Sequence record: OP114734.1
Strand: one strand, 5' to 3'
Origin: Escherichia phage vB_ESM-pEJ01
Length of the DNA: 64,000 nt
The notes under the pieces are model-generated. The model was not told the origin of the DNA and searched no databases. It saw only the letters and a program-made list of their open reading frames with translations. A program made the translations under genes and the position numbers. Below, piece by piece: positions 2,166 to 60,125 of this stretch; within the stretch, counting starts at the first letter, position 1, and each line of letters begins with the position of its first letter.

Positions 2166-2176
2166 AATATTATCCT

Positions 2177-2650: not shown

Positions 2651-2665
2651 TTTAGCACCCTTTAT

Positions 2666-2673
2666 TATAAATA
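2666..2673 (+). promoter_or_regulatory. T4-type late promoter TATAAATA upstream of gene 53
   Basis: exact TATAAATA about 33 nt upstream of the gene 53 ATG. Confidence 0.5.
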
Positions 2674-2705
2674 CATAATACTATTTATCAATTGAGGGTG
2701 CTAAA

Positions 2706-3260: not shown

Positions 3261-3271
3261 GGTGATTAATT

Positions 3272-5071
3272 ATGCTAATGTTTAATAACTCCGTTAAATG
3301 GTTTACCGGAATTGTAGAAAACAGGGAAGACCCATTAATGTTAGGCCGAGTTCAGGTTAGGATTCATGGTATACATCCTTCGCTATCCGCACACGGTGAC
3401 ATTCAAGGTCTTCCAACCGAAGATCTATTATGGATTACTCCAGTACAAGATATTACAAGCGCGGCGATCTCCGGTATAGGTCAAAGCCCTACTGGTATTG
3501 TTGAAGGTTCAATGGTATTTGGTTTGGCCTTAGATGAACGTTATTTAAACTGCGTTATTCTGGGTACTATTGCCGGACAATATACAGAGAAACCACTCAC
3601 TACAGAAGGTTTTTGCGACCCTTCTGGTGCATATCCGCGTTATATTGGTAATGATGTTAATATTCTTGCTCGTGGTGGTATTAACCCAGAAACCGGACAA
3701 ACAACAAAACCTGATAGTGTCTATATTCGAGATGAAAACACTGGAGTTGCAGTAAATCCAGACGACGAGCCATTAGACCAAATTCCGGTTGACGATAACC
3801 CAGAATACACAATAGAAAAAATGCTGCGGGGCGATGAGGGATATCGCGAGAAATGGTATCTTGATTCAGAAGGATATCCGACAATAGGCATCGGGCATTT
3901 GATCATTTATAAGAAAACCAGTGATCTGGGTATTATCAATAATGAACTTTCTAAGCTGGTAGGGCGTGAAGTTACAAACGGAAGACTTACCGCCGAAGAA
4001 GTTAGCAAAGTATTTGCTGACGATATAGAAAAGACTCGCCGTGATATGCGTAAACATCCACGCATTGCACCAGTTTATAATAAATGTAATGCTTCTCGTC
4101 GTATGGCATTAGAAAACATGGCGTTTCAAATGGGCGTAGGCGGATTGGGTAAATTTAAAAATAGTCTCGCTGCAATGTTAGCAGAAGACTGGAAAAAAGC
4201 CTATGATGGATTGCGTCAATCAGTATGGGCTAATCAAACTCCAGGACGTTCTAGCCGTGTTTCTAAAATTATTCTTACTGGTAACTTAGAATCATATGGC
4301 GTAATTGCTCCAAAGAAAGAGGAATCAATTTCGGATGATCCGCGAGCACGTTTGAGAAATGCCCGTATTGCTGCCTATAAGACGCAGAGAGCAGAAGAAG
4401 ACCCAGAAGCACCGTTTACCCCACAAGACACACGAATCATGTTTAAAGAGCCTAAGAGTTCGTATTCTGCAAGGTATCCATATAACCATGTGTACGAGTC
4501 AGAGAGCGGTCATATTATCGAGATTGATGATACTCCTTCTCATGAGCGATATCATCGTAAACATCCTTCTGGTACATTTGAAGAAACCAGACCGGACGGA
4601 ACGAGGGTAGAAAAGATTGAAGGCGATGATTATCTGATCGTTAAACAAGGCCGGAAAGTAAACGTCAAGGGTAATTTGCAAGTTGTTGTTGAAGGTGACG
4701 CGCAAGTTTATTATATGGGTAATGTGATGCAAACCGTTGATGGTAACGTCACTGAATTTATTCGTGGCAATGTTAATCAGACCGTTGAAGGTACTGCTAA
4801 CATGCATGTTGTTGGTGATGTTATCGCACAGCTTGACGCTAATTTGACGGCTAACGTCAAGGGTAATGCTGAATTAATGATCGATGGTAACACTACCGAA
4901 ACAATTAAAGGTAACTATGATTTAACCGTTGAGGGTAATTTTAATATGACAGTCAATGGCACTAAATCAGATCAGGTTAATGGTGACTGGTCCCGTAATT
5001 GTGGTGCAAGCGTTAAAGATATTGCATCTGGTACAGTTAAAATTGATGGTAGCCGTATTGATCTTGGGTGA
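3272..5071 (+). CDS. 5: baseplate central spike / tail lysozyme gp5
   Basis: N-terminal OB region (WF.G.VE...LGRV.VR.HG), central T4-lysozyme-like domain (EGY..KWYLDSEGYPTIGIGHL), C-terminal beta-helix octapeptide repeats (V.G.). Confidence 0.95.
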   Translation: MLMFNNSVKWFTGIVENREDPLMLGRVQVRIHGIHPSLSAHGDIQGLPTEDLLWITPVQDITSAAISGIGQSPTGIVEGSMVFGLALDERYLNCVILGTIAGQYTEKPLTTEGFCDPSGAYPRYIGNDVNILARGGINPETGQTTKPDSVYIRDENTGVAVNPDDEPLDQIPVDDNPEYTIEKMLRGDEGYREKWYLDSEGYPTIGIGHLIIYKKTSDLGIINNELSKLVGREVTNGRLTAEEVSKVFADDIEKTRRDMRKHPRIAPVYNKCNASRRMALENMAFQMGVGGLGKFKNSLAAMLAEDWKKAYDGLRQSVWANQTPGRSSRVSKIILTGNLESYGVIAPKKEESISDDPRARLRNARIAAYKTQRAEEDPEAPFTPQDTRIMFKEPKSSYSARYPYNHVYESESGHIIEIDDTPSHERYHRKHPSGTFEETRPDGTRVEKIEGDDYLIVKQGRKVNVKGNLQVVVEGDAQVYYMGNVMQTVDGNVTEFIRGNVNQTVEGTANMHVVGDVIAQLDANLTANVKGNAELMIDGNTTETIKGNYDLTVEGNFNMTVNGTKSDQVNGDWSRNCGASVKDIASGTVKIDGSRIDLG

Positions 5072-5079
5072 GGTAACTA

Positions 5080-5646
5080 ATGGTTGAAATTCTTCCGATG
5101 AGTTCAAAATTGGAGGATATCAGCGAGCGAGAAATCTTTGAGGTGGTGTTCTCTTATAAAGCAACGCCACCGGATGCAAATACCACATACACGATTAAAG
5201 AGTTTAAGATCAGCGAGTATCGCCCTAATAAGGGCGTTACCGTTGAAGAAACTAAAATATCTGGTGAGTATCGGGATAGTTTTTCGCTTGGCGCGGATTC
5301 TCTTAAATATATAACGAAAGATAGAATTAAAAAATCTGCCGGAAGTTTTGATGATTTACCAGATCCAACTACCGCAGATCTATATTATTTTAACGCTCCT
5401 ACACGTCTACAGGAGGTTTATACTTATAAAGTAACCCTAACCTATATCCAATCTGTTTCAGAGTCTTCTGGTGGTTCCGGTGAAGGAAATAGTGGTGGTT
5501 CCAATAGCCGAGAGGGTGCTGGTGAAACTAATCCGCCTCCGGTAGTAACCGAGCACACAATAGAGAAAGTTTATACTCAAACCGTTTTTGGAAATTGGGA
5601 TGTGTGGAGTAAACAGTTAAGAGATTATGTACATAGGGGTGTTTAA
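5080..5646 (+). CDS. hypothetical protein at the gene 5.1 position
   Basis: 188 aa, RBS GAGGT, Gly/Ser-rich linker; position between gene 5 and the PAAR gene. Confidence 0.5.
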
Positions 5647-5939
5647 TGGCTGGATTATCCTACGATAAAGCTAAAACTACAGGGCACGGAAACTACCCAC
5701 CTACGGTAATTAATGCAACTCAATCTAAGGTATTTGTTGAGGGTATCCCTGTATTAGTCGAAGGAGACCCAATTACACCACATACAAAAACAACAAAGCC
5801 TTATGATACACACGGGGGAACTACGGTCGCCAGTACCCCGAAAGTATTTGTTACCGGAAAGAAAGCAATTCAAATGGCAGATCGTATTAGCTGTGGCGAT
5901 ACCGTCGCTATGGCATCACCGAAGGTATTCATAAAATGA
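5646..5939 (+). CDS. 5.4: PAAR-repeat spike tip protein gp5.4
   Basis: 97 aa, same length as T4 gp5.4; start overlaps upstream stop (TAATG); immediately downstream of gene 5. Confidence 0.8.
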
Positions 5940-7840
5940 CAAAGCAAAAGATTACACAAATTCCTGATATTTTTAATGCTGCTACATTCGATGAAATTAA
6001 AAGCGCATTAACAGACTGGATGAGAAACCAGGAAGAATTTAAAGATTTTGATTTTAATGGTGCTGGTATTAACGTATTGATGGACTTGCTCGCATATAAC
6101 ACTCTGTATATTCAGCAATTCGCTAACGCCGCGCTATATGAATCTTTTATCAGAACGGCAATTAAGCGTAGTTCAGTTGTTCAAGCCGCGCAAGATTTAG
6201 GATATTTGCCAGCAAGTAAAACTAGTGCATCGACTACAATTATGTTGCACGTAACACATCCGCGAAATCCGGCAAGTATTCGAATCCCACGAGGAACTAA
6301 ATTTATTGCAAGTGTGGATCGCCAGACTTCTTACCCGTTTGTGACTACAGAAGACGTTGTGAGCGTTTTAGGTTCAAATGGTTTATATACGCCTATGCTT
6401 AAAGTCGCACAAGGTCGTATTGTTCGTACAGAGATGTTATTTGATCCGAAGAAACAAATTCTGATCCGCGATCCTGATATTGACCGCGCTCAGGTTAAGT
6501 TGTGGGTAGATGGTGCTGAATGGAAAGACTGGACGCGAGAAAGTATTGTTAATGCAACTGGCGCTAGTAATATTTTCTATATGCGTGAAACCGTAGACGG
6601 ACATACTGAAATTTTCTTTGGTGAGGGTGAATCAACTTTATCTGCCGCTGGCGGTGCACTGGAAGCAAATTATATTGGTGGACTTAAGCCGTCAACTGGT
6701 GCTAATATTGTTATCGAATATATCAGCACTAAAGGCGCGGAAGCAAACGGTTCAGTTAATTTCACATACGCGGATACATTGGCATCAATTTCTATTGTTA
6801 AAATTATTGATAATCCGACAAATGATCGTGATTATGTCGGTGCAGATGGTGGTGGTGATCCTGAATCAATCGAACGTATCCGTGAACTTGCTCCGGTAAT
6901 GCGTGAATCTCAGCGTCGTTGTGTGACTGCTTCCGACTATGAGGCTTTTGTGTCTAGCCGTTTTGGTAGTATTGTTCAGGCGGTACAATGTTTCACCGAC
7001 CGAGAAAAACCGGGTTATGCTTTTGTTGCTGTTAAGCCTAAATCTGGCTTGCGCTTGACAACCGTTCAAAAAGAAGATATGCGGGATTATCTGGCAAAAT
7101 ATAACCTTGCCCCTATCACGCCGAGCATCATTGACCCAAACTATCTGTATATTAAACAGAATATTAAAGTTTCCTATTCAATCAATGACTTATCAGAATC
7201 AGAGCAGTGGCTGCGCGGTGCGGTTATTGATCAGATTGATGCATATTATACCGACGAAGTGGAAATTTTTAACCAGACCTTTAGTAAGTCTAAAATGCTT
7301 GCGCGTATTGACAAAGCTGATGTATCTGTGATAGGTTCTAGTGCAGAAATCGAGATGGTGCGAGAGATCGACAACTTCTATAAAGCACCGATGGCTGGAA
7401 TCAAGTTTTTAAACCAGTATAAGAGCGGAATCAAGTCTAGTTCATTCAACTTCGAAAAGGACGACAAGCAATATCCAATCCATTATGTAAGTACAGAAAT
7501 GAACAAAGAATCCGGTTTAGCTAAATTGCTGGTTGGACCTTTCCCTGTTGATTCTACAATCGCTTTACCGCACTATTCCGGCACTGATTTTGATAAAGAG
7601 GTTATTGACGGGGCGGACCTATACTTTGAGGTTGGAGAGGTTCAGCATTATGACGACCTTATTTCATGGGATCTGGGTAAACTGAATATCAATAGCGATC
7701 GCTTTACTGGTTCATATATTGAGTTGACAGCTAAACCGATTGCTGATAACATCTTTACTAAAGACGGTTCTTTGATCGTGTTTGAAAACGATCTCCGTCC
7801 TCAGTACACAACTATTAGTCTGGAGGCAATTGCTCAATGA
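5936..7840 (+). CDS. 6: baseplate wedge protein gp6
   Basis: 634 aa; synteny 5-6-7-8; ATGA overlap with neighbours. Confidence 0.9.
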
Positions 7841-10800
7841 TTAAAGCGCCTAGTGTAACTAGCTTGACAATAGAAAAATTGTCTGCTAATCAGGCGTATA
7901 TCACATGGGATGACGTAGGCGAAAACTTCTTTTATTTTGTGGAGTTAGCCGAAACCAGAACACGAGACGGGGAGATCATCCCCGTCGATGAGTTAAGCTG
8001 GGTAAACCTGGGATATACTGCCGAACAAAACTGGTTTGAGGATAAAAACCTTTTTCCAGAATATTATTACAAGTTTCGTGTAGCAGTAGCCGCAGAAGGA
8101 TTTGAACAAAGTAAATGGGTTGAGACAGAAGAGTTTCAGACATTTAAAACAAACGCATATAATTTTTCTATGATGCGAGAGTTCAACCTTGCAAACGAGT
8201 TTATAAAGGAAAAATTTACATACGATAATCGAGAGTATGTCAAGTTTAATACTGACCTGATTCAAGCATCATTGATGAAGGAAGATTTTGTCTTTAGTCC
8301 TGAATATGCAAACATGACAAATATCTCAAACTACATTGTAGTTGATGAGAACTTTCATGAAATACAGGACCACATAGAAAAAGTTTGTACTGATATAAAC
8401 CGCACTATGTTAGCGGAAATGAACGGTGTTTTGTACCTTTTCGAACGGTTCCAGCCGATCGTGAAAGTGTCAAATGATAAAGGCCAATCATGGAAAGCAT
8501 ACAAGGCTTTTAATGACCGTGTAGGCAATCCGGTTTCCCGTACATGCGTTTATCAGTCTAAAACCACTACTTACGTTTTAGGATATGACCGAATCTTTTA
8601 CGGACGACAAGCGAACGATACTCGATGGAGCGCGGACGATGTTCGATTTAGTGATGATACGATCACTTTTGCAAAGGTCGGTGACGAAAACGATTTAGGC
8701 TTTGACGTTGAGGTCTTTGGTGTATTTTCCAGATTAACAGGTGATACCACAAAATACGCCGAAGCTATGGCGTGTAGTGATGACTATTTGTGGGTTGGTG
8801 CTAAAGATGTTATTCGCCGGATTCGTCTTAAGAATACTCCTGTTGATACCGTACAGGGTTCGCCTACGTTTGGAGAAAAAATATTCGATCCTGATGTTAT
8901 CCGAGTAACAGGAAATGATAAAGCTGTCATTCAGAAAATGGATGTGATCGACGGTAAATTGCTTGTATTTGTTACGGGTGAAGTTAAACAGCGTTATCAA
9001 GATCCAACTAAACCAGAAAACGTTGTTCCGTCAGATGATGCGGGTGTATACTTAATAGGGAGTGATGGTCTGTCTTTTCAGAGAGTATTTGGCAACACTC
9101 CGCAGGAAAGGGAATATATTCAGCATGGGTTCAGTAATATGTCAACCAATGGTGATGAGGTGTTCATAAGCCATTATAATCATCACTTCGAAAGCATTTT
9201 ACCTGATCCAGAAACTGCCGAGAAATATGAATTGGGAGAAGCTGTAAAATATTCTCATGAGCCAACTTATCTAACTGATAAGAAAATACATCAAACTACT
9301 TTCAGAGCAAGTTATGATGATTTGCGTATTTGGGAGTTAGGACCGCAAGCGTATTATAATGAGGCCGATTATACATGGATGCGTCGAAACGGTGTCCGTG
9401 TGTGGATCACAAATGATAATCGCCCGTTGGTTGTTTATCCAGAGGTTATCTATACTCAAGAAGTTGATACATCTGGCATTCTTGACCAAAATAGGATCAA
9501 CCGAGAAGTTTATGATAAAGGGACCGTGACCTGTTATCTTAACAATGTTAAATTTGAAGGATTCAAACAATATGCATCCGGTGTAATGTTCCATAAAAAC
9601 ACAGGAGAGATCATAGGATTCTATCAATTTAATTATCGTGTTCGTGATCAGGTTGGTGTATATTGGAAACCTACAAATGTAGCATTTGTTGCTGAATTGC
9701 AAAATCAGGTTCGAGAGGTTCCCTGGGTTCCGGTTCACTACGATCGAGAGCAAGATCCAGATTTGCGGCCTTTACTGAATAAGATGACCCCTGATAGCTT
9801 TTTACTTGAGAACGAAAATTTCAGAAAATTCTCTGAATATTATCTGCAATTCTTAAGTGATGGTTCAGGAACATATTATAATAAACTAAAAAATCTGATT
9901 AAAAACAAATATCCACGCGAGCAAGATGCATATGAGTATCTTTGTTCAGAGATGAACAAACGAAACATCTATGCAGATAAAAACAAGCGAGATGCGGTCG
10001 TAAGATTCTTTGAATCCCGCAAATCAGATTTTTATTCCACTAAAGGCGTGGAGGCTTCTTATAAGTTCTTGTTTAAGCTACTTTATAATGAAGATGTGGA
10101 AATTGAGGTTGAATCACAAGCCGGACTAGAGTATGATATTGTTGTTAGTTCAACGAACATTGACGAGGATATCGTAGGTCGCACGATTTATACTCCAACC
10201 GGACGGGCTAACGTGACGTATCTTGAAAGGGAATATGAAGGTGGTCGCCTACGCTGGCGAGTAACCATTCATAACCTGATCGGGCGGTTCGAAGAAGGAC
10301 AAGTGATCAAATCAGAGAAAACAGCGTTTGAAGGGATGATCCTTGTTGGTGTACGTGGTAAAGAGTTGTTGAGTAGTTCAATCGACTATATCAACCGATC
10401 ACGAAGCCAATACACCATGAAGATTAAAAGTGCATTGCCAGTTTCGCGCTATGCAAATGATGTAATGCGATTCGTTCATCCTGTCGGCTTTGGGTTTATC
10501 GGTGTTACCCTGCTTACAATGTTCATTAACAGCGGGTTAAGCATGAAGCACACCGAGACTATAATTCAATCTCTGAAAAATTATAAGTTTGACAGCGGAT
10601 TGCCTAGCGTGTATCCTGATCGGGTGGCAGACCTTGACGTTGACGGAAACATTAAGAAAGACCCGCTTACCGGAAAAGCATTATATTTGACTTCACCTTT
10701 AATCGGTGATGAATTTCCGGTTCCTCCTGAATATGATCAGGAGAACAGCGAATTGTTCCACGGACTTAAAGCAAGCGAACGAAGATTTGCAATGAGTCCA

Positions 10801-11963: not shown

Positions 11964-11991
11964 TTGACAATCTTATTTGGTAAGGTATAAT
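11964..11991 (+). promoter_or_regulatory. sigma70-like early promoter (TTGACA-N16-TATAAT) driving the inserted cassette
   Basis: -35 TTGACA 11964-11969, -10 TATAAT 11986-11991; leader begins ACACACAT as in the PeSL units at 52-60 kb. Confidence 0.6.
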
Positions 11992-12020
11992 ACACACATC
12001 TAAACAACGGAGGATAAATT

Positions 12021-12278
12021 ATGGCACGTCGTAAATTTACAGATAATTGTGAAGCAATTCAGGTATCCCCTTGCGGTTGGGATGTGATCGCGAATGGTGA
12101 AAAGATCGGAGAGATCATCGATCATACTCATTCATCACTAGCCGATTATACCGATGAACTATGGGAGGGTATCAACTTCATGAATGACACTAAACGATTC
12201 AAGACTATTGATGAAGCTATACATTTTGTGTATAATCCAACTTTCGGTATGTGGAGTGATAGAAAATGGCACGCGTAA
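12021..12278 (+). CDS. hypothetical protein (85 aa)
   Basis: ATG with RBS GGAGGA; first gene of the inserted cassette. Confidence 0.5.
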   Translation: MARRKFTDNCEAIQVSPCGWDVIANGEKIGEIIDHTHSSLADYTDELWEGINFMNDTKRFKTIDEAIHFVYNPTFGMWSDRKWHA

Positions 12279-21775: not shown

Positions 21776-22609
21776 ATGTTCGGTTGGCACTATAATTCGT
21801 CAATTAGACGGTATATTGTATTGCTGGGTAATTTATTCTCCGGCGTACAAATTAAAAGGGTGCGTAGTGACGGTGAGCGGTTTATTAAAGTTCCTATCAC
21901 CTACGCAAAGAAAGAAAAATTCATGATGAGTCTGGACAAATATAACAATATCTCAAGTGAGGAAGACGTAGCAAAGGTAGAAACTATTTTACCGCGTATG
22001 TGTCTTTCTTTGATTGATATGACATACGCCCAGAACTTTAAAACCAATATTGCAAATAAGACAGTACCAAAATATACGGCTGATGGAATCAGGAGCGTAA
22101 CACAATATAATCCTGTACCATATAAGTTTACTTTCGAGTTAGGGATTTATACGCGTAACGAAGATGATATGTTTCAAATAATTGAACAGATTCTTCCTTA
22201 CTTCCAGCCTCATTTTAACTGTAAGATTAAAGAACTACACGGTAATGATGTATGGATTGATCGAGATATTCAGGTCACAATTAGTTCTATTACTCCAGAT
22301 GAACAGGTAGGCGAAGATAAGTTTTCTCGTCGTCGTCTTGAGTGGACCATTATGTTCGAATTTATCGGGTTTATATATCCTCCAGCTACCGACGTTAAGG
22401 GGGAAATTAGAACGATTTATCTTGATTTTCATGCCAATTCTCGTGAATTGAATCCTAGCGGTAATTTTGAATCAGTGGATCACGAGGTCGTTAAACGTGA
22501 CGTCGAGCAAGAAGATTGGGACGGAACTATCAAAGAATCATATTCTAGTGATATTCCAATACCAGTTGCACCGACTCCACCGGGTCCACGTAGTGTAAGA
22601 GAATTTTAA
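21776..22609 (+). CDS. 15: tail sheath stabiliser / tail completion protein gp15
   Basis: start moved to ATG at 21776 (RBS AAGGGGG) giving MFGWHYNSS.RRY...FIKVPITYA, which matches the T4 gp15 N-terminus. Confidence 0.85.
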   Translation: MFGWHYNSSIRRYIVLLGNLFSGVQIKRVRSDGERFIKVPITYAKKEKFMMSLDKYNNISSEEDVAKVETILPRMCLSLIDMTYAQNFKTNIANKTVPKYTADGIRSVTQYNPVPYKFTFELGIYTRNEDDMFQIIEQILPYFQPHFNCKIKELHGNDVWIDRDIQVTISSITPDEQVGEDKFSRRRLEWTIMFEFIGFIYPPATDVKGEIRTIYLDFHANSRELNPSGNFESVDHEVVKRDVEQEDWDGTIKESYSSDIPIPVAPTPPGPRSVREF

Positions 22610-52621: not shown

Positions 52622-52834
52622 TTATAATGCACCATCGAGCAATTGCTCTAATGTGTATCCTGAATAGTCTTTTTCAATCAGGATATATTTTCCTACTCGT
52701 TTAATACAACCGCGCATTTCAACGTATTCTGCGTAGTTGATGGTGCGAGTTGTTCCATCTTCTAGCAAAGCAGTACCGATTTCGTTAATGCGGTCATAAG
52801 TTACGTCGGTAATGATGATTTCGATGTTAGCCAT
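52622..52834 (-). CDS. hypothetical protein (70 aa)
   Basis: start moved to ATG at 52834 (RBS AAGGAG); N-terminus MANIE identical to the ORF at 54721. Confidence 0.55.
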   Translation of the reverse strand: MANIEIIITDVTYDRINEIGTALLEDGTTRTINYAEYVEMRGCIKRVGKYILIEKDYSGYTLEQLLDGAL

Positions 52835-52870
52835 TTGATACTCCTTAGTAGTTCGTTTCGGTATGTGTGC

Positions 52871-52900
52871 ATTATAGGGGATCACCGATCCCCCTGTCAA
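52871..52900 (-). promoter_or_regulatory. PeSL-like early promoter unit 1 (TTGACA-N18-TATAAT, palindromic spacer)
   Basis: - strand -35 at 52895-52900, -10 at 52871-52876; spacer GGGGATC...GATCCCC. Confidence 0.6.
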
Positions 52901-52907
52901 CAACTTT

Positions 52908-53426
52908 TTAGTTATTTTTTAATTGTTCATCTTGCAATAATGCAATCACATGCTGGCGATGCTCTTCTGATTGAGGCACACCAAAAAAGTTTGTTTTGTA
53001 GAAATACTCTAATCGGTCTTCTCGTGTGCTCTCTTCCATCATGATCGCGGGTAGTCCGAGATTTCGGAAACGTCGCTTTTCTGCTGGCGTAAAATCACTG
53101 TAATACAACATAGAATCATCATTACCAGCAATGCTAAACTCATCCTTCATGAAAGAGAATATTGCGTTTAAACGCTGTTTACCGTCCACGATTTCGATCT
53201 CATAGCGAGAGCCATCATCAATCTTAGCCATTGCGATAGAGCCTACCGGAAAATCATTAATCATGTTTTCGATAAACATACGTTTGTTTTCGGTGTCCCA
53301 TACCAAAGGACGCTGATAATCTGGGTTCATGTTGATATAGCCATCTTCTAACCATGCCTCATAAACAGAGATGACAAAGTTTTTAGTATTGGTATAGTAA
53401 CGGCGTTTAGGCGTTAAACGGTTCAT
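52908..53426 (-). CDS. DUF262 / ParB-like nuclease-domain protein
   Basis: motifs NPDYQRPLVWD and VDGKQRLNA (DGQQR-type); start moved to ATG at 53426 (RBS AGGAG), 1 nt after the upstream stop. Confidence 0.65.
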   Translation of the reverse strand: MNRLTPKRRYYTNTKNFVISVYEAWLEDGYINMNPDYQRPLVWDTENKRMFIENMINDFPVGSIAMAKIDDGSRYEIEIVDGKQRLNAIFSFMKDEFSIAGNDDSMLYYSDFTPAEKRRFRNLGLPAIMMEESTREDRLEYFYKTNFFGVPQSEEHRQHVIALLQDEQLKNN

Positions 53427-53760: not shown

Positions 53761-54473
53761 AGATCCTTATTGGCTTCAAATACTGCCTTTGCGAATCCTC
53801 GCGGGGTAAGTGACCTGATAGTCTTTGTTCTGGTTCCTTTCCCGCCTAGCTTAGAATGCTGTTTACTGTACCCTTTATTAATCGGCAACGGTTTCTTTTC
53901 TGGCATTATAAAGCCTTGTCCGGTCCATAAGCAAGTCTTTTTCGGGTACATATCACGGGCGGCAATATACTCAGGAAACGTAGGATGTATATCATCTTCC
54001 GGCAAATAACCGCCATATTCCCACGGGTGGAACATGTAATCAGGCTTACGCCACATGCTAGAGATAACGCTTACAGGATTCTCTATCATGTAGGGAACTC
54101 CTAGCCATTCACCCAAATAAGCGGTTATTTTAGCTGCCCGTACATCATGAACTTGAATCAACGGTCCTTGTTCTAGTTTCTTTCGTTCAAAGTGCGCAGC
54201 GCCACTAACAGCTAAATTGGTGCACGGTGGGAATGCAAAGATAATATCCGGTTTCCCCCATTCAAGGTCCATTGCTCTTTCCAGCCAGTTCAAATCAATC
54301 CAGGTGTTTACATAGGTAATGTTTTGATGTTCAAATCGGGTATTATATTTTTTGTATGTACCGTGGTCGCCATCGTCAGCATTAAAGCAGATCACCTTAT
54401 GACCTGCTTTAGCCCATTCTAACCCCATTATCCCCGATCCGTCAAAGTTGCAGAATATTAATTTTTGTTTCAC
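53757..54473 (-). CDS. compact DNA C5-cytosine methyltransferase-like protein (no large target-recognition domain)
   Basis: motif I FCNFDGSGIMG, motif IV FAFPPCTNLAVSGA (Pro-Cys), motif VI MIENPVS, motif IX-like IRSLTPRGFAKA in canonical order; GTG start overlapping upstream TGA. Confidence 0.65.
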   Translation of the reverse strand: MKQKLIFCNFDGSGIMGLEWAKAGHKVICFNADDGDHGTYKKYNTRFEHQNITYVNTWIDLNWLERAMDLEWGKPDIIFAFPPCTNLAVSGAAHFERKKLEQGPLIQVHDVRAAKITAYLGEWLGVPYMIENPVSVISSMWRKPDYMFHPWEYGGYLPEDDIHPTFPEYIAARDMYPKKTCLWTGQGFIMPEKKPLPINKGYSKQHSKLGGKGTRTKTIRSLTPRGFAKAVFEANKDL

Positions 54474-54721
54474 GCTGCCCCCATTGGTTTGATAGTAACA
54501 GAATCTAAAAGACCTTTGTTAGCCAGTTCGCGGCAAGTTTTCAGATCCGCAACTTCCCAGCCAGCCGCAATCAGGTTATCGATTAGGCTGTTAGCAACTT
54601 CTTCGCTCATGAAAGAGCACTGTTTGCCGATGGTGTAGCGTACACGCTGTAATTTCAGTTTACGGAAGCCTTTAACGTTCAGGTCTTTAGCGATTTTCTT
54701 TGCGGTTTCGATGTTAGCCAT
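54470..54721 (-). CDS. hypothetical protein (83 aa), first gene of the four-gene operon
   Basis: ATG with RBS GGAGAA directly downstream of PeSL unit 2; N-terminus MANIE. Confidence 0.55.
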   Translation of the reverse strand: MANIETAKKIAKDLNVKGFRKLKLQRVRYTIGKQCSFMSEEVANSLIDNLIAAGWEVADLKTCRELANKGLLDSVTIKPMGAA

Positions 54722-54761
54722 TGTTTGATTCTCCTAAGTGGTATCTCGTCTTGATGGTTGT

Positions 54762-54790
54762 ATTGTAGGGGAGTTATCCTCCCCTGTCAA
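54762..54790 (-). promoter_or_regulatory. PeSL-like early promoter unit 2 (TTGACA-N17-TACAAT)
   Basis: palindromic spacer GGGGAGGATAACTCCCC. Confidence 0.6.
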
Positions 54791-54804
54791 CACTTTTTAT
54801 AAAA

Positions 54805-54972
54805 TTATTTGTTAATTTCTGGTGCGTTGCTAGGATAGTAACCTTCTTTAACTCCGAGATATTTCGCAACCATCCCTACAATCTTCTGTGCTACTACAAT
54901 GTCAAATTTCAGATAATCTTCGCCGTGGGTTTCAATGATATATGCTTCACATGCTGCTTTAGTCTCGAACAT
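54805..54972 (-). CDS. small protein (55 aa), paralog of 58083-58250
   Basis: manually found ORF MFETKAACEAYIIETHGEDYLKFDIVVAQKIVGMVAKYLGVKEGYYPSNAPEINK; RBS GGAGAA. Confidence 0.55.
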   Translation of the reverse strand: MFETKAACEAYIIETHGEDYLKFDIVVAQKIVGMVAKYLGVKEGYYPSNAPEINK

Positions 54973-55005
54973 TTTGATTCTCCTATTTCGTTTCGTTATG
55001 TGTGT

Positions 55006-55034
55006 ATTATAGGGGATCTCCAGATCCCCGTCAA
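55006..55034 (-). promoter_or_regulatory. PeSL-like early promoter unit 3 (TTGACG-N17-TATAAT)
   Basis: palindromic spacer GGGGATCTGGAGATCCC with two GATC. Confidence 0.6.
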
Positions 55035-55048
55035 CAACTTTTTTAAAA

Positions 55049-55330
55049 TTATTCGTGATTAGTTTCGATGTTGTGCATTTTGCACCAGTTCAGCCAATCA
55101 CCCAGATCCTGATAGTTAATGCTTTTATCTGCTGCCATCGTTTTTGTCTTGATACCCATATGTGCGTTATGAGTAAGCATTTTTACAGTGAACTCAATTT
55201 TATCACCTTTAGCTTTAACATCAACCAGTTTGGTCCACTGGCTACCAGCGCCGCGAATGTTCATACCAACGATGTTTCCGATGTATGCTTCTTTGTTTTT
55301 CAGGATTTCGGTTGCTTTGATGAATTTCAT
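55049..55330 (-). CDS. hypothetical protein (93 aa)
   Basis: ATG with RBS GGAGAA downstream of PeSL unit 4. Confidence 0.55.
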   Translation of the reverse strand: MKFIKATEILKNKEAYIGNIVGMNIRGAGSQWTKLVDVKAKGDKIEFTVKMLTHNAHMGIKTKTMAADKSINYQDLGDWLNWCKMHNIETNHE

Positions 55331-55363
55331 TTTTGATTCTCCAGTTCGTTTCGGTATGTGTGT

Positions 55364-55392
55364 ATTATGCTATGTTCTTACTTTGGTGTCAA
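55364..55392 (-). promoter_or_regulatory. PeSL-like early promoter unit 4 (TTGACA-N17-CATAAT)
   Basis: no spacer palindrome. Confidence 0.5.
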
Positions 55393-55400
55393 CAACTTTT

Positions 55401-55670
55401 TTAGATATTTTCAGAAATAAATTTTAAAACTTGACGTAAATGTTTCTCATCTTTGATAGTCGCCGGAAGTTCTTCTTTTACTTCCTGTGCAAGATAGATA
55501 TTTCCGTTCCAAGTGAAAGATCCGTCTTCGTTTACGCGATAGCTGAACATCCACTCGCAATCATTTTCGATTTCATATACACACAGAAGGGTGTAATCGT
55601 TAAAGCTATTGATTTCAAGGTCGAAGCCGTGACGTTTTGCAAAGTTGGTAGTGGTTTTAGTCAGCGCCAT
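55401..55670 (-). CDS. hypothetical protein (89 aa)
   Basis: ATG with RBS GGAGAA downstream of PeSL unit 5. Confidence 0.55.
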   Translation of the reverse strand: MALTKTTTNFAKRHGFDLEINSFNDYTLLCVYEIENDCEWMFSYRVNEDGSFTWNGNIYLAQEVKEELPATIKDEKHLRQVLKFISENI

Positions 55671-55710
55671 TGTTTGATTCTCCTAAGTGGTATCTCGTTT
55701 CGATGGGTGT

Positions 55711-55739
55711 ATTATGCTATAGGCGTGATCTGGTGTCAA
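55711..55739 (-). promoter_or_regulatory. PeSL-like early promoter unit 5 (TTGACA-N17-CATAAT)
   Basis: leader nearly identical to unit 6. Confidence 0.5.
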
Positions 55740-55763
55740 CAACTTTTTTAAAATTTTATGCAA

Positions 55764-55788
55764 TAAAAAGCCGACACTAAGGTCGGCT
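55764..55788 (-). terminator. intrinsic terminator after family member A
   Basis: perfect 7-bp stem AGCCGAC/GTCGGCT, U-run on - strand. Confidence 0.65.
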
Positions 55789-55795
55789 AATAAAA

Positions 55796-56104
55796 TCATT
55801 TAGACAAATAATCATTCAGTGCAATCCGGTCGGCATGTTCCGGCGTTACGTCAATCGCAATCAGTTTAACGCGTGCTTTCTTGCGACCTGGGTTTTCTCG
55901 TAACCAGTGCTCATGACCGTGAACATTTTTATACTGCGATGCTTCTTCGAAGGTACGGATCGGACCTGGGTAATCAGCGTAAAGGATCTCTAGGTCATCG
56001 GTGATGTAAAAATATACGTTGTAATTGCTGTTCTCTAGTTTAAGCAGAGACATTCGGAACATTGGGAGATTTTCGCGGGTAAATTCAAAGATATTATCTT
56101 TCAT
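55796..56104 (-). CDS. H-x-H-W family small protein A (102 aa)
   Basis: start moved to ATG at 56104 (RBS GAGGA); C-terminal HGHEHWLRENPGRKKARVKLIAIDVTPEHADRI. Confidence 0.55.
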   Translation of the reverse strand: MKDNIFEFTRENLPMFRMSLLKLENSNYNVYFYITDDLEILYADYPGPIRTFEEASQYKNVHGHEHWLRENPGRKKARVKLIAIDVTPEHADRIALNDYLSK

Positions 56105-56130
56105 AGTATTATCCTCAATAGTTGGATGAA

Positions 56131-56153: not shown

Positions 56154-56441
56154 TTAAAACAGCCCTTCCTGTACACCGTAGTAGAGTTCATCGCTGATAA
56201 TTTCATTAATGCGACGGTGTGCATATTCCTGATTTGCGAAGTTGTCAGCAAGTTCTACTTTAGTTTCGCCGTCATGAGTCCATTTAGTGATAACTTTACC
56301 ATCTGCAAATTTGAAGTTGAACTCTTTAGCTACCGCATCGCGTACCAGACGTGCAAACTTGTTGTTGCGGATTGCATTGTCGGTTTCGTGTGCAGCGTGA
56401 GCGAATTTGTTAACTTTCAGAGTGATAGTAATGTATGCCAT
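56154..56441 (-). CDS. hypothetical protein (95 aa), paralog of 59727-60038
   Basis: RLVRDAVAKEFNFK versus REVRKALAKEFNTK in 59727-60038; RBS GGAGAA. Confidence 0.55.
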   Translation of the reverse strand: MAYITITLKVNKFAHAAHETDNAIRNNKFARLVRDAVAKEFNFKFADGKVITKWTHDGETKVELADNFANQEYAHRRINEIISDELYYGVQEGLF

Positions 56442-56487
56442 AATTTGATTCTCCTAGTTAGAAAGTGTATCTCGTTTCGATGGGTGT

Positions 56488-56516
56488 ATTATGCTATACA
56501 CCCGATCTTATGTCAA
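56488..56516 (-). promoter_or_regulatory. PeSL-like early promoter unit 6 (TTGACA-N17-CATAAT)
   Basis: leader nearly identical to unit 5. Confidence 0.5.
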
Positions 56517-56522
56517 CACTTT

Positions 56523-56801
56523 TTATAAAATAATTTTTTGATATTTTTCTATGATGTTCGTGTAAGTCACATCAACCGCTATCACCGTTGCTTCGAATCC
56601 ACCGTTTAGCCAATGGCTATGGTCATGATCGTGAAAGAAACCAAGACCAGTACGAAGACCTTCTTTATATTCGGCGCGTACATTTAGATCATCATCGATA
56701 AACAGATAAAACCATGAATTTTTACTAGGATTGATGATACAACCTTTCAGATTAGGGAGAATATCACGACTAAGAATAAACTTATCACCTACTTTGAACA
56801 T
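56523..56801 (-). CDS. H-x-H-W family small protein B (92 aa)
   Basis: start moved to ATG at 56801 (RBS GAGGAA); C-terminal HDHDHSHWLNGGFEATVIAVDV. Confidence 0.55.
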   Translation of the reverse strand: MFKVGDKFILSRDILPNLKGCIINPSKNSWFYLFIDDDLNVRAEYKEGLRTGLGFFHDHDHSHWLNGGFEATVIAVDVTYTNIIEKYQKIIL

Positions 56802-56815
56802 AATATTTTCCTCAC

Positions 56816-57124
56816 TTATAAAGTTTGACCGTTGTTTTTCGCGTAATGCTGAATGCGTGCTTGATCTGCTTCCGCTGGTGATAGATTCCATGCAACCACT
56901 ACAACTTCTGACGCATCGTCATCCGTTTCTGATACCCAATGATTGTGATTCATACAGTTATTTGCTATCGAGTGAGCAAATGATTTCATCACTGGAGACG
57001 TATAATCATAGTAACGGATTTTCAGATTTTCATCAACATACAAGTAGATCGTATAAGGTTTATATTCAGTAACCAGTAACAGACAGTTACGCAATTCTGG
57101 GAAAATCTTTTTAGTTAATTTCAT
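56816..57124 (-). CDS. H-x-H-W family small protein C (102 aa)
   Basis: start moved to ATG at 57124 (RBS GAGGA); C-terminal HNHWVSETDDDASEVVVVAWNLSPAEADQ. Confidence 0.55.
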   Translation of the reverse strand: MKLTKKIFPELRNCLLLVTEYKPYTIYLYVDENLKIRYYDYTSPVMKSFAHSIANNCMNHNHWVSETDDDASEVVVVAWNLSPAEADQARIQHYAKNNGQTL

Positions 57125-57125
57125 T

Positions 57126-57344
57126 TTATAATCCTCGGTCTCGGCTATAGTACACGGTACGCCATACAATTTCATGTTTCGTGTCGCTCCAGCACACGAT
57201 CTCATTTACTCTTAAATCTTTGTTATCAACAAAAGATGAACATTGTGACGCTTCTTTCATCATTTTATCTGCTGTTTTCTCATCAAATACAGCACAGATT
57301 TCTTTATACACTCGATAATCTTTGAATTGACTCTGAATACCCAT
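57126..57344 (-). CDS. hypothetical protein (72 aa), tandem paralog of 57304-57561
   Basis: SQFKDYRVYKEI...KMMKEASQC versus SKFKEYKAYQQI...KMMEDASKC. Confidence 0.5.
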   Translation of the reverse strand: MGIQSQFKDYRVYKEICAVFDEKTADKMMKEASQCSSFVDNKDLRVNEIVCWSDTKHEIVWRTVYYSRDRGL

Positions 57345-57561: not shown

Positions 57562-57826
57562 AATCATTCACTACCTTATCAGCTTCTTTTGTTGTTTTTA
57601 CATCAACTGCGATAACTCGTAAAGGTTCGTCATGGTTCCACCAGTGGTCATGAATATCAGCTTGTGATTTATCACCAAAGGAATCACGAATATCATTTTT
57701 ACATTTATAGCTAATGTGACCTTCATAGTCAACATAAAGGTAATTATCGAAAATCGGCGTTTTTAAGATCATACCGAAAAATCTTTCTTTGTGTGTCTTA
57801 TCCAGCGTTACAGTAATTCGCATCAT
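57548..57826 (-). CDS. H-x-H-W family small protein D (92 aa)
   Basis: RBS AAGAGGAA; C-terminal IHDHWWNHDEPLRVIAVDVKTTKEADKV. Confidence 0.55.
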   Translation of the reverse strand: MMRITVTLDKTHKERFFGMILKTPIFDNYLYVDYEGHISYKCKNDIRDSFGDKSQADIHDHWWNHDEPLRVIAVDVKTTKEADKVVNDYEQI

Positions 57827-57838
57827 AATATATTCCTC

Positions 57839-58018
57839 TTAGAAAGGGATGGTCATTTCTTGAGCTTGTACATTCTCGTTAGGATTAAACTTCATCCAAC
57901 CGATATTGTCTACCAGCATATGTACATTTTTATCATATCCTACGTGAGTAGTCAACACTAAATGTGCTTTACCTTCAACGATGATTTCCATGTACTTCTG
58001 AACTTCGATAGCTTTCAT
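57839..58018 (-). CDS. hypothetical small protein (59 aa)
   Basis: manually found ORF MKAIEVQKYMEII...; RBS GGAGAA downstream of PeSL unit 7. Confidence 0.45.
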   Translation of the reverse strand: MKAIEVQKYMEIIVEGKAHLVLTTHVGYDKNVHMLVDNIGWMKFNPNENVQAQEMTIPF

Positions 58019-58050
58019 TTTGATTCTCCGTTTGTTGTCTTGATGGGAGT

Positions 58051-58079
58051 ATCTTACTACTCCCTTTAATCATTGTCAA
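58051..58079 (-). promoter_or_regulatory. PeSL-like early promoter unit 7 (TTGACA-N17-TAAGAT)
   Basis: palindrome GGGAGTA...TACTCCC overlaps the -10. Confidence 0.5.
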
Positions 58080-58082
58080 CTA

Positions 58083-58250
58083 TTATTTGTTAATTTCCGG
58101 TGCGTTGCTCGGATAGTAACCTTCTTTAACACCTAGATATTTTGCAACCATTCCGGTGATCTTCTGTGCTACTACGATATCGAATTTCAGGTAGTCTTCA
58201 CCGTGGTTTGCTACAATGTATGCTTCGCATTCTGCTTTAGTCTGGAACAT
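58083..58250 (-). CDS. small protein (55 aa), paralog of 54805-54972
   Basis: start moved to ATG at 58250; MFQTKAECEAYIVANHGEDYLKFDIVVAQKITGMVAKYLGVKEGYYPSNAPEINK. Confidence 0.55.
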   Translation of the reverse strand: MFQTKAECEAYIVANHGEDYLKFDIVVAQKITGMVAKYLGVKEGYYPSNAPEINK

Positions 58251-58284
58251 TTTTGATTCTCCTATATCTCGTTGGTATGTGTGC

Positions 58285-58313
58285 ATTATAGGGGATCGGT
58301 GATCCCCTGTCAA
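58285..58313 (-). promoter_or_regulatory. PeSL-like early promoter unit 8 (TTGACA-N17-TATAAT)
   Basis: spacer GGGGATCACCGATCCCC on the - strand, same palindrome arms as unit 1 with inverted centre. Confidence 0.6.
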
Positions 58314-58320
58314 CAACTTT

Positions 58321-58623
58321 TTATTCTTCATCTTTATCTTGATATGCGTACTTCATAAATTTGTCTGCTACTTTGTCCGCGTTTTCAGGTTCTACGTCTG
58401 ACGCTAGGACAACAGCTAGTTCGGTTTTGTCGTTTCCATCATACCAATGATTATGAGTGTCGTTTTCTTCGATATAAAACGAATCGTTTGGAGTTGTGCG
58501 ACAATATACGTCTAAATTCCCATCGATATAAAAGATCCAATCCGAATACAAAATGATTGTTTTAGCAAGATTTTTATTGTCTCTTACAAAAGGTTCCGCG
58601 ACAAATAGCTTAGTTTGTTCCAT
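58321..58623 (-). CDS. H-x-H-W family small protein E (100 aa)
   Basis: start moved to ATG at 58623 (RBS GAGGAA); C-terminal HNHWYDGNDKTELAVVLASDVEPENADKV. Confidence 0.55.
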   Translation of the reverse strand: MEQTKLFVAEPFVRDNKNLAKTIILYSDWIFYIDGNLDVYCRTTPNDSFYIEENDTHNHWYDGNDKTELAVVLASDVEPENADKVADKFMKYAYQDKDEE

Positions 58624-58639
58624 AATATTTTCCTCAAAA

Positions 58640-58828
58640 TTATACAGCTTCGTAAACTTCCCAATGTTCAGCACCAACACGCTTAACGAAAAGGTTTTCT
58701 TTGATGTTATTCATAAACGTCTGGATGGATTTAATGCGGTTGGAAGGTTTCCAGTCTTCGTTGGCATTGCGGTGATACATAATATTACCAGTTCGCTTAT
58801 ATTCAGCAACCATTTTAAGACCACACAT
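58640..58828 (-). CDS. hypothetical protein (62 aa)
   Basis: ATG with RBS GAGGA; preceded by hairpin 58848-58866. Confidence 0.5.
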   Translation of the reverse strand: MCGLKMVAEYKRTGNIMYHRNANEDWKPSNRIKSIQTFMNNIKENLFVKRVGAEHWEVYEAV

Positions 58829-58847
58829 AATATTATCCTCAATTTGT

Positions 58848-59474: not shown

Positions 59475-59654
59475 TTACATCACAATCACGCCAGCCGTTG
59501 AAAGTTGATGTTTCAACTGAGCATTTTCTGCTACTGTCAAATCAATGATTTCTTGTGACGCTGCAATCATATAGCCATTGGTGATATTGTTTTGCATCAG
59601 TTCAATGGTCTCTTCGTTGTAGCGGATTTTAGCGATGATTTCGTTGAAGTTCAT
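59475..59654 (-). CDS. hypothetical small protein (59 aa)
   Basis: manually found ORF MNFNEIIAKIRYNEE...; RBS GGAGAA downstream of PeSL unit 10. Confidence 0.45.
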   Translation of the reverse strand: MNFNEIIAKIRYNEETIELMQNNITNGYMIAASQEIIDLTVAENAQLKHQLSTAGVIVM

Positions 59655-59688
59655 AATTGATTCTCCTAGTTCTTTTCGGTATGTGTGT

Positions 59689-59718
59689 AGTATAGGGGAG
59701 TTTAACCTCCCCTGTCAA
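59689..59718 (-). promoter_or_regulatory. PeSL-like early promoter unit 10 (TTGACA-N18-TATACT)
   Basis: palindromic spacer GGGGAGGTTAAACTCCCC. Confidence 0.55.
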
Positions 59719-59726
59719 CAACTTTT

Positions 59727-60038
59727 TTAAAGTTTTTCCATGATAACGGTCATAATTACATCTTCTGCGCGAGCGGTCAGATTATCGGCGTCAGCATGTG
59801 GGCGGTTGGTTGTTACAGAGATAACACCGTTGCGCACTGGTTTAATATTGATATCAAGATGGTCCGCGAAACGTTCGCCAGTTACAGAATGAATTTTGGT
59901 GTTAAATTCTTTTGCCAGTGCCTTGCGAACTTCACGAATCAGGGTAGCGTTTTTCAGTTGGTTCTCCGCGCTCATGGTCTTCTGGGTGTTCATGGTTCCG
60001 TCGAAGTCAATCATTGGCAGCGTTACGATGTATTTCAT
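59727..60038 (-). CDS. hypothetical protein (103 aa), paralog of 56154-56441
   Basis: RBS GGAGAA downstream of PeSL unit 11; shared REVRKALAKEFNTK region. Confidence 0.55.
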   Translation of the reverse strand: MKYIVTLPMIDFDGTMNTQKTMSAENQLKNATLIREVRKALAKEFNTKIHSVTGERFADHLDINIKPVRNGVISVTTNRPHADADNLTARAEDVIMTVIMEKL

Positions 60039-60083
60039 TTTTGATTCTCCGTTTAAGAAAGTATGTTTCGTTTTGATGTGTGT

Positions 60084-60112
60084 AGTATAGGGGATATGTG
60101 ATCCCCTGTCAA
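60084..60112 (-). promoter_or_regulatory. PeSL-like early promoter unit 11 (TTGACA-N17-TATACT)
   Basis: palindromic spacer GGGGATCACATATCCCC. Confidence 0.55.
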
Positions 60113-60125
60113 CAACTTTTTTGAA

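Follow-up and report, generated by a model that had tools for sequence, protein, structure and literature searches.

A leader shared by small genes of an RB49-like coliphage is very probably the 3′ half of PeSL cassettes

Promoter-early stem-loops (PeSLs) were described in the phages RB49 and phi1 by Arbiol et al. (2010, Genome Biol Evol 2:140, PMC2839356), whose definition combines a consensus sigma-70 promoter with an AT-rich stretch and a G-run/C-run hairpin. Their conservation spans ~100 bp and ends in a Shine–Dalgarno (SD) sequence and an ATG, and a genome holds ~50 of them, most standing ahead of ORFans in its hyperplastic regions (PMC2839356). In RB49-like phages these elements provide high-level early expression of small accessory genes together with short homology patches for gene shuffling (PMC2839356); they are one published route to the modular shuffling of genes in T4-type phages. 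Here we examine a 5′ leader shared by small genes in 64,000 nucleotides of DNA from Escherichia phage vB_ESM-pEJ01 (record OP114734.1; this whole stretch is called ‘the window’). The leader is very probably the 3′ half of PeSL cassettes, in which it serves as a recombination patch and would also act as an early-expression module. The element itself is already known and is not presented as new; the window offers a clean natural example of it.

Promoter and terminator activity have been shown for the RB49/phi1 PeSLs 193/192, 206/205 and 211/210, and pairs of PeSLs recombine into mini-circles, as established by inverse PCR and sequencing for the mini-circles of open reading frames (ORFs) 192 and 210 (PMC2839356). 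The spacer between ORF190 and ORF191 of RB49 is a sequenced mini-circle crossover site (PMC2839356). Arbiol et al. drew a comparison with morons and integron cassettes, which are likewise single small accessory genes with their own expression signals, gained and lost as units; the difference is that mobility here relies on homology between regulatory cassettes, not on integrase and attC or on illegitimate recombination.

PeSL cassettes of the alt–ligase region

Krischvirus genomes (G2494, FL20, E26, Phi1 and GEC-3S among them) are 94–97% identical to the window over 52.5–60.5 kb, and the window can be assigned to an RB49/phi1-like T4-type coliphage of that genus. In related records the hyperplastic region, equivalent to Phi1 ORF185–212, is flanked by alt (RNA polymerase ADP-ribosyltransferase) and by DNA ligase and is filled by ~25 small hypothetical genes; eleven promoters are annotated there in the GEC-3S record. 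The genes of the region and the repeated cassettes all occupy the minus strand of the window. A scan of that strand for TTGAC followed by a −10 box located ten cassettes between 52.8 and 60.1 kb. Their −35 boxes start at 60112, 59718, 58313, 58079, 56516, 55739, 55392, 55034, 54790 and 52900 (the coordinates by which we name the units), and the matching start codons lie, in the same order, at 60038, 59654, 58250, 58018, 56441, 55670, 55330, 54972, 54721 and 52834.

The ten promoters are the top ten sigma-70 matches in 52.4–60.3 kb, agreeing at 10–12 of 12 hexamer positions across spacers of 17–18 nt, and an AT-rich upstream element, (T)AAAAAAGTTG, is conserved immediately 5′ of TTGACA in nine of the ten units. 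A spacer hairpin of the form GGGGNN...NNCCCC can be read in units 60112, 59718, 58313, 55034, 54790 and 52900, and in units 58079 and 56516 a hairpin overlaps the −10 box. In unit 55739 a terminator hairpin (55769–55788) lies a short way upstream of the promoter, and no obvious stem-loop could be read in unit 55392, which the 2014 paper of Comeau et al. would class as a ‘half’ PeSL. All ten units end in GGAG(A/T)ATCAA(N0-3)ATG, and no Pfam family was found in any of the nine cassette-driven proteins scanned.

Every sequence-level feature of a PeSL is found here: promoter, AT-rich element, stem-loop, SD with ATG, a hyperplastic setting of ORFans, and indels with internal crossovers. The likeness to the elements of RB49 and phi1 extends to the phage group, the region and its ORFans 185–212, and to the arrangement of AT-rich region, TTGACA-N17-TATAAT, G-run/C-run hairpin, SD and ATG, with indels and crossovers falling within the element. 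Unit 54790, from which a preliminary description of the leader had been drawn, corresponds to the ORF190–191 spacer, and behind unit 60112 lies ORF210, the other gene for which Arbiol et al. obtained mini-circles. The published work differs in that its alignments rest on promoter and SD; the word ‘leader’ is absent from both the 2010 and the 2014 texts.

The preliminary description held that the leaders all begin and end alike. The end is indeed stereotyped: GGAGAATCAAA stands directly before the cassette ATGs, eight units having it unchanged and the other two with a single mismatch, and the whole window holds 12 matches where 1.9 are expected, a count reached by none of 100 shuffles. Uniformity at the start was overstated, with the 18-mer ACACACATACCGAAACGA present in one exact copy and three copies with one mismatch (four of the ten units). 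The remaining six leaders are related variants, for example ACACCCATCGAAACGAGATACCACTTA and ACAACCATCAAGACGAGATACC, and the unit at 54722–54800 itself carries the variant ACAACCATCAAGACGAGATACCACTTA instead of the 18-mer quoted for it. The similarity is nonetheless real. With promoter and SD removed, so that only the stretch strictly between an invariant CAT and GGAG was kept, the mean normalised alignment score was 0.068 against −0.198 in composition-preserving shuffles (z = 9.6, 0/500), and the first 12 nt after CAT had an ungapped identity of 0.55 against 0.34. The leaders are therefore far more alike than a shared promoter and SD would make them. What the preliminary description missed is that the element had already been described, and that the leader, as DNA, is also a patch for recombination.

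The SD block goes with the cassette and is not typical of the genome at large: in Phi1, 31 of 276 genes have GGAGAATCAA within one mismatch, and 28 of these 31 come immediately after a sigma-70 promoter (Fisher p = 1.5e-19). Across ten Krischvirus loci, in which the 105 nt ahead of the orthologues of the ten downstream genes were compared, the sequence from −10 box to ATG is nearly invariant and stays with the downstream gene, and the −35 box, hairpin and upstream half are often swapped for those of another cassette.

Three differences in gene presence or absence could be mapped, each with its junction in the interval from the −10 box to about +13 of the leader. ORF186 is missing in the window and in KFS-EC and JK32, with a junction within CATACCGAAACGAA; unit 52900 of the window is accordingly chimeric, its left half being the Phi1 PeSL before ORF186 and its right half the PeSL before ORF185. 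ORF210 (window gene 60038) is absent from FL20 and JK32, with a junction in CCCCTATAnTACACACAT, and after its loss both phages carry a chimeric version of the ORF209 cassette (window unit 59718). ORF191 (window gene 54972) is absent from JK32, the junction being ACACACAT / CAAGACG. The published mini-circle junctions fall in the same zone; the conserved beginning of the leader thus functions as a patch for recombination. The chimeric unit 52900, with its junction in the leader core, supports the published PeSL model from independent isolates.

From 5′ to 3′, each copy of the cassette has an A-rich element, a sigma-70 promoter close to consensus, a C-rich discriminator, a probable start site at the A of CAT and a leader of 26–40 nt, with a GGGG...CCCC hairpin usually in or over the promoter. 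As DNA, the block from −10 to about +13 and the SD block together form the longest run of identity between cassettes, a patch through which homologous recombination deletes, inserts or swaps the flanking ORFans, as the junctions mapped here and the experiments of Arbiol et al. show; such recombination in turn makes the cassette copies more uniform.

The leader as RNA and its Shine–Dalgarno block

Transcription likely starts 7 nt past the −10 box, where the A of the invariant CAT lies. We place it there because of the spacing and because of the work of Nolan et al. (2006, PMC1524935), in which positions −3 to −1 of RB49 early promoters are C, consistent with mapped 5′ ends. In a Phi1 profile over 56 promoter-proximal genes, ACACCCAT follows the −10 box. 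ACACAC, the first six bases of the 18-mer and formerly counted as leader, is probably the promoter discriminator, upstream of the start and outside the RNA. The predicted 5′ untranslated regions (5′UTRs) are 26–40 nt long, their length varying by mid-leader indels; A makes up ~50% of them, and G is scarce except in the SD.

Sequence conservation of this kind might point to a structured cis-regulatory RNA (a riboswitch, an attenuator or a protein-binding hairpin) or to a small RNA, and it is the sole support for such a reading. Predicted folding of the ten 5′ ends gave minimum free energies of −0.4 to −2.6 kcal/mol with z-scores of −0.1 to +1.4, nine of ten being positive and so less stable than shuffles. 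The indels that vary leader length are in the middle of the leader, and a search of Rfam at E ≤ 1 matched no family on the leaders, its single hit being a chance snoRNA match elsewhere (53082–53127). With near-zero folding energies, mostly positive z-scores and no Rfam family, we rejected a structured or riboswitch leader and attach almost no credence to it. The mean predicted unpaired probability from SD to AUG is 0.47–0.72, and the properties of the leader would fit a build for fast ribosome loading. A short, A-rich, G-poor and unstructured 5′UTR with a strong SD and an A-rich spacer would give immediate high-level early expression to any ORF behind the cassette.

The preliminary description also proposed that the cassette might extend into coding sequence, having seen that two units share their first five codons (MANIE). 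That pair was borne out: the 16-nt patch ATGGCTAACATCGAAA occurs in two identical copies (52819..52834 and 54706..54721, minus strand), both present in ten of ten Krischvirus loci, at the start of proteins that otherwise lack similarity. If the cassette generally supplied a common N-terminal peptide or a downstream translational element, other units should resemble this one, and an all-against-all BLASTP comparison of the ten cassette products found similarity only in the MANIE pair and in one pair of full-length paralogues. One of 45 pairs is thus unrelated yet alike beyond the start-codon region, and the other eight N-termini differ. Second codons AAA or GCN are mildly enriched behind the cassette (18/31 against 65/244 genes, p = 7e-4), which speaks for the idea; AAA and GCN second codons are also a general trait of well-translated E. 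coli genes. We rejected a general extension into coding sequence, which we regard as very unlikely: the leader and SD block are parts of a repeated PeSL cassette, and the coding overlap comes down to one 16-nt patch and one paralogue pair.

The paralogues (54805–54972 and 58083–58250, minus strand) encode 55 residues each and are 89% identical in amino acid sequence and 85% over 172 nt. Both have a cassette of their own in front and a further one behind, and JK32 has lost the first copy. A further shared sequence, AACATCGAAAC, is common to the 3′ end of gene 55049–55330 (...HNIETNHE*, 55063–55078) and the MANIE start of gene 54470–54721 (54706–54721), both on the minus strand, and could be the relic of an old crossover or a product of chance.

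A translational regulator was the other reader proposed for the leader. In T4, RegB acting with ribosomal protein S1 cuts the SDs of early messages between the GG and AG of GGAG (PMC1702504; PMC3014915). The target is an 11-nt single-stranded sequence, GGAGRAYARAA, with GGAGAAUAAAA as the T4 optimum, and lies mostly in the SDs of early genes (Durand et al. 2006, NAR 34:6549, PMC1702504; Uzan & Miller 2010, PMC3014915). GGA is followed by G (or U) at position 4, A is favoured at positions 6, 8, 10 and 11, and C is not found at position 9 (PMC1702504). According to the literature, RB49 RegB cuts its own SD, GGAU, in vivo. The 2010 PeSL text does not mention RegB (the 2014 text was not searched for it).

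GGAG is present in all ten cassette SD blocks, and the block GGAGAAUCAAA matches the RegB/S1 consensus at 10 of 11 positions, its tail AAUCAAA fitting RAYARAA at six of seven. The regB locus falls outside the window; in Phi1 (94% identical) it is phi1p094, a clear member of PF10715 (E = 1e-48). SD-overlapping sites of at least 10/11 occur in Phi1 at 23 of 56 promoter-proximal genes and at 4 of 219 others (p = 1.7e-14), and regB's own SD, GGAUAAUAAAA, is one of those four. The SD block, perhaps the whole leader, might then be primarily the site of a post-transcriptional regulator, likeliest RegB with S1, which would inactivate cassette-driven early messages together. Besides the concentration of sites and the presence of regB, the predicted unpaired state of the block favours this, as does an 11-mer more stereotyped (eight of ten exact) than ribosome binding alone demands. 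Set against it, the sole mismatch is the C at position 8, a position with a strong preference for A, and C at positions 8 and 10 adds to the RegB resistance of T4 gene 1 RNA (PMC1702504). The 23 sites are copies of one cassette and not independent events, and RB49 RegB is only ~42–44% identical to T-even RegB, so its specificity may differ from the T4 consensus. RegB homologues were found only in T4-like genomes, and a T1-like phage without RegB has the same GGAGAATCAAAAATG.

RegB/S1 action of this kind is plausible, and as a layer added to the early-expression and recombination roles of the PeSL leader it is compatible with them, although in either form we do not think it the probable one. 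It gives the earlier idea of a translational regulator a specific candidate. GGAGAAUCAAA may be a putative cleavage site that shuts messages off after the early period, in which case the cassette would be a complete on-then-off expression module. The resemblance to T4 lies in an 11-nt single-stranded site of GGAG and an A-rich tail over early-gene SDs in a RegB-encoding lineage. The differences are the C in place of A at position 8, the putative status of the cleavage, and the location within a repeated mobile cassette instead of scattered translation-initiation regions (TIRs).

RegA was set aside as a candidate regulator, the cassette TIR not being U-rich around the AUG; the region's other TIR (GAGGAWWAUAUUAUG) looks more RegA-like. 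This second stereotyped TIR, GAGGAWWATATTATG, has eight matches within two mismatches on the minus strand of the window against 0.25 expected, and the U-rich stretch over its AUG is closer to a RegA-type operator than the cassette TIR is. Six of these matches lie within the hyperplastic region, between promoter cassettes (56102–56116, 56799–56813, 57122–57136, 57824–57838, 58621–58635 and 58826–58840); the others are at 2163–2177 and 22101–22115. Phi1 has 34 genes with this TIR type, 22 of them not promoter-proximal.

The leader core in other phage families

A sensitive BLAST search with one 96-nt cassette also gave matches in Lavrentievavirus phages of Proteus and Salmonella; against 5,426 E. 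coli genomes, a 96-nt cassette had no match. The Lavrentievavirus phages (Casjensviridae) have their own repeated terminator/promoter/leader cassettes, of the form TTGACA-17-TATATT-ACWCACATMGCCGGAACGAACCGGAAACTTAAACC, with a leader ~85% identical to the Krischvirus type-A leader (locus positions 1267–1360 and 3030–3115 in Proteus phage ASh-2020a, 3022 and 4498 in Salmonella phage SD-11_S17). An exact-pattern scan of viral contigs found the type-A core after TTGTCA-17-TACAAT in a 67-kb contig and the type-B core, CCCATCGAAACGAGATAC, in T1-like phages. Cores directly after a −10-like hexamer were located at 9–25 of an IMG/VR 67.5-kb contig (TACAAT-GGCCCACATACCGAAACGAACTAC) and at 10025–10042 of a 33.6-kb contig (TAGAAT-AAACCCATCGAAACGAGATAC).

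The T1-like promoters are of the extended −10 type, and their cassettes were located by anchoring on an ATAGCAC box. In JMPW1, atuna and Stevie the repeated cassette consists of an ATAGCAC...TTGYTAAAAC box and an extended −10 box followed by nnCCCATCGAAACGA, and one Stevie copy ends in GGAGAATCAAAAATG. The early cassette of these T1-like Drexlerviridae can be summarised as an ATAGCAC(TTT/GAA)TTGYTAAAAC box, followed by an extended −10 with a hairpin over it and then the CCCATCGAAACGA core as in Krischvirus; copies lie at locus positions 1055–9373 in JMPW1, 1123 and 2427 in atuna and 1125 and 1863 in Stevie, and also in IMG/VR contigs.

Start context and leader core (CCCATCGAAACGA..., CACATAGCCGGAACGAAC...) are common to these cassettes and those of the window; the SD block GGAGAATCAAAAATG recurs in one instance, and window gene 55401–55670 has a homologue there as well. 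The T1-like cassettes differ in having the ATAGCAC...TTGYTAAAAC box and an extended −10 (TGnTATAGT) instead of TTGACA-17-TATAAT; those of Lavrentievavirus keep TTGACA-N17, with TATATT as the −10 box, and their actual SD lies further downstream. A limited literature check found no published description of either cassette. The PeSL papers, for their part, do not have the conserved CAT start with its CGAAACGA core, the use of two TIR classes, or the same leader in other phage families. The cross-family core is absent from them and is the only, and only partly, novel element of our findings.

The product of gene 55401–55670 (minus strand), an ORFan homologous to that of Phi1 ORF194, has homologues in 431 phage records, among them T1-like siphoviruses (57–65% amino acid identity), Phapecoctavirus (~48%) and others. 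At three T1-like loci the coding sequence is 60–65% identical to that of the window, yet CATCGAAACGA is identical at 11 of 11 positions, and at 19 of 19 in one contig. We read this gene and its leader core as evidence for exchange of promoter, leader and gene between unrelated virulent phages. Since the core is invariant across families while the coding sequences diverged, either it is under strong selection linked to its place at the start of transcription, or it travels with genes between virulent phages, or both.

A host origin or mimicry of the leader was rejected: besides the lack of E. coli matches, CACATA(N)CCGRAACGAAC has 118 matches, spread over unrelated taxa, in 596 Gb of bacterial genome sequence, against a rough random expectation of ~280, and the core is thus not enriched there.

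An alternative account would make the leader similarity a neutral by-product of recent cassette duplication or gene conversion, with function limited to carrying the SD. Cassettes demonstrably recombine, which homogenises them, and leader subtypes are mixed mosaically with different promoter spacers. Leader divergence among orthologues, on the other hand, is below that of third codon positions: mismatch between window and orthologues is 1.9% in mid-leader, 1.1% in the SD block and 7.3% in the discriminator (raised by cassette swaps), compared with 0.4% at codon positions 1 and 2 and 4.5% at position 3, rates that are rough and phylogenetically not independent, since the window is the reference in every comparison, and that to this extent also weaken our own reading. 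Krischvirus isolates diverge by only 1–5%, which makes an orthologue-based test of purifying selection weak and the cross-family comparison more informative. There, in Drexlerviridae, Lavrentievavirus and other viral contigs whose promoters are built differently, the cores CATCGAAACGA and CACATACCGAAACGAAC come right after −10 boxes, and CATCGAAACGA is the core that stayed invariant where the linked coding sequence diverged. We therefore consider a purely neutral origin improbable.

Several further points weigh against the reading of the leader as half of a PeSL with roles in expression and recombination. Units 55392 and 55739 have no hairpin within the promoter and fit the PeSL definition only loosely, 55739 having its hairpin, a terminator, upstream. 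Our placing of the start site and our reading of early timing and expression level derive from sequence and from the RB49 papers, and a literature search for a Krischvirus transcriptome found nothing of relevance. Within one genome, recombinational homogenisation and purifying selection are not cleanly separable, and because the core occurs in phages with a different upstream promoter architecture, recombination within Krischvirus alone cannot explain its sequence.

A broader interpretation, which we put forward tentatively and hold to be rather doubtful, is that the first 10–20 transcribed nt (AUCGAAACGA... / AUACCGAAACGAAC...) are a portable, strongly selected early-expression leader of unrelated virulent enterobacterial phages, which would comprise RB49-like myoviruses, T1-like siphoviruses, Lavrentievavirus and the phages of further viral contigs. 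It would be kept independently of promoter architecture through a common host process (candidates being promoter escape by RNA polymerase, a stability step that depends on the 5′ end, and ribosome/S1 loading), and in Krischvirus would be fused to a RegB/S1-cleavable SD. A newly captured ORFan would then automatically receive an early burst of expression followed by programmed shut-off. The cross-family core would point to a sequence-specific need in the initially transcribed region or 5′UTR of strong phage early promoters, and also to the exchange of promoter-plus-gene cassettes between unrelated virulent phages.

Individual cassettes and a related promoter

The ten cassettes are given here from low to high coordinates, all on the minus strand and with transcription starts as predicted above. 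That before the ORF185 homologue (MANIEIII...) spans 52832..52912, with its −35 box at 52895–52900, the stem-loop GGGGGATCGGTGATCCCC, a −10 box at 52871–52876, a predicted start at 52864 and the SD block GGAGTATCAA at 52835–52844. The cassette of the preliminary description (54719..54802), upstream of the ORF190 homologue (MANIETAK...), has an AT-rich/UP region ahead of its −35 box (54785–54790), followed by the spacer stem-loop GGGGAGGATAACTCCCC, the −10 box TACAAT (54762–54767) and the discriminator (54756–54761). Its transcript would begin at 54755, giving a 5′UTR of 54722–54755 that contains the SD block (54722–54734) and leads to the ATG at 54719–54721.

Before the ORF191 homologue (54970..55046) the −35 box is TTGACG (55029–55034), and the stem-loop GGGGATCTGGAGATCCCC and −10 box (55006–55011) precede the leader AUAACGAAACGAAAUA, with a predicted start at 54999 and an SD block at 54973–54983. 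The PeSL-type cassette before the ORF193 homologue (55328..55404; −35 box 55387–55392, −10 box CATAAT at 55364–55369, predicted start 55357) carries the sole exact copy of ACACACATACCGAAACGA, at 55346–55363, and an SD block at 55331–55342. Before the ORF194 homologue the cassette (55668..55788) includes the terminator hairpin noted above, a −35 box at 55734–55739 and a −10 box at 55711–55716; its type-B leader, AUCGAAACGAGAUACCACUUA, has a predicted start at 55704 and an SD block at 55671–55683. The sequence CATCGAAAC, which is also the start of the type-B leader, occurs in five copies in the window against ~0.5 expected.

Hairpins over the −10 box mark the next two cassettes: that before the ORF198 homologue (56439..56528), with −35 box 56511–56516, −10 box 56488–56493, stem-loop GGGTGTATAGCATAATACACCC, predicted start 56481 and SD block 56442–56454, and that before the ORF204 homologue (58016..58091), with −35 box 58074–58079, the −10 box TAAGAT (58051–58056), stem-loop GGGAGTAGTAAGATACTCCC, predicted start 58044 and SD block 58019–58029. 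The ORF205 homologue, paralogue of the gene starting at 54972, stands behind the cassette 58248..58325 (−35 box 58308–58313, stem-loop GGGGATCACCGATCCCC, −10 box 58285–58290, predicted start 58278, SD block 58251–58262). The cassette of the ORF209 homologue (59652..59730) comprises a −35 box at 59713–59718, the stem-loop GGGGAGGTTAAACTCCCC, a −10 box at 59689–59694, a predicted start at 59682 and the SD block GGAGAATCAAT at 59655–59666, and that of the ORF210 homologue (60036..60124) a −35 box at 60107–60112, the stem-loop GGGGATCACATATCCCC, a −10 box at 60084–60089 and a long leader, AUCAAAACGAAACAUACUUUCUUAAAC, with a predicted start at 60077 and an SD block at 60039–60050.

A related early promoter and leader lies on the plus strand in the structural-gene block, at 11964..12023, and reads TTGACA-16-TATAAT-ACACACATCTAAACAAC-GGAGGATAAATT-ATG, with the ATG at 12021. 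It sits within late structural genes, ahead of a small ORF homologous to Phi1 ORF140; its discriminator and ACACACAT start context are as in the cassettes, and its SD block (GGAGGATAAATT) differs.

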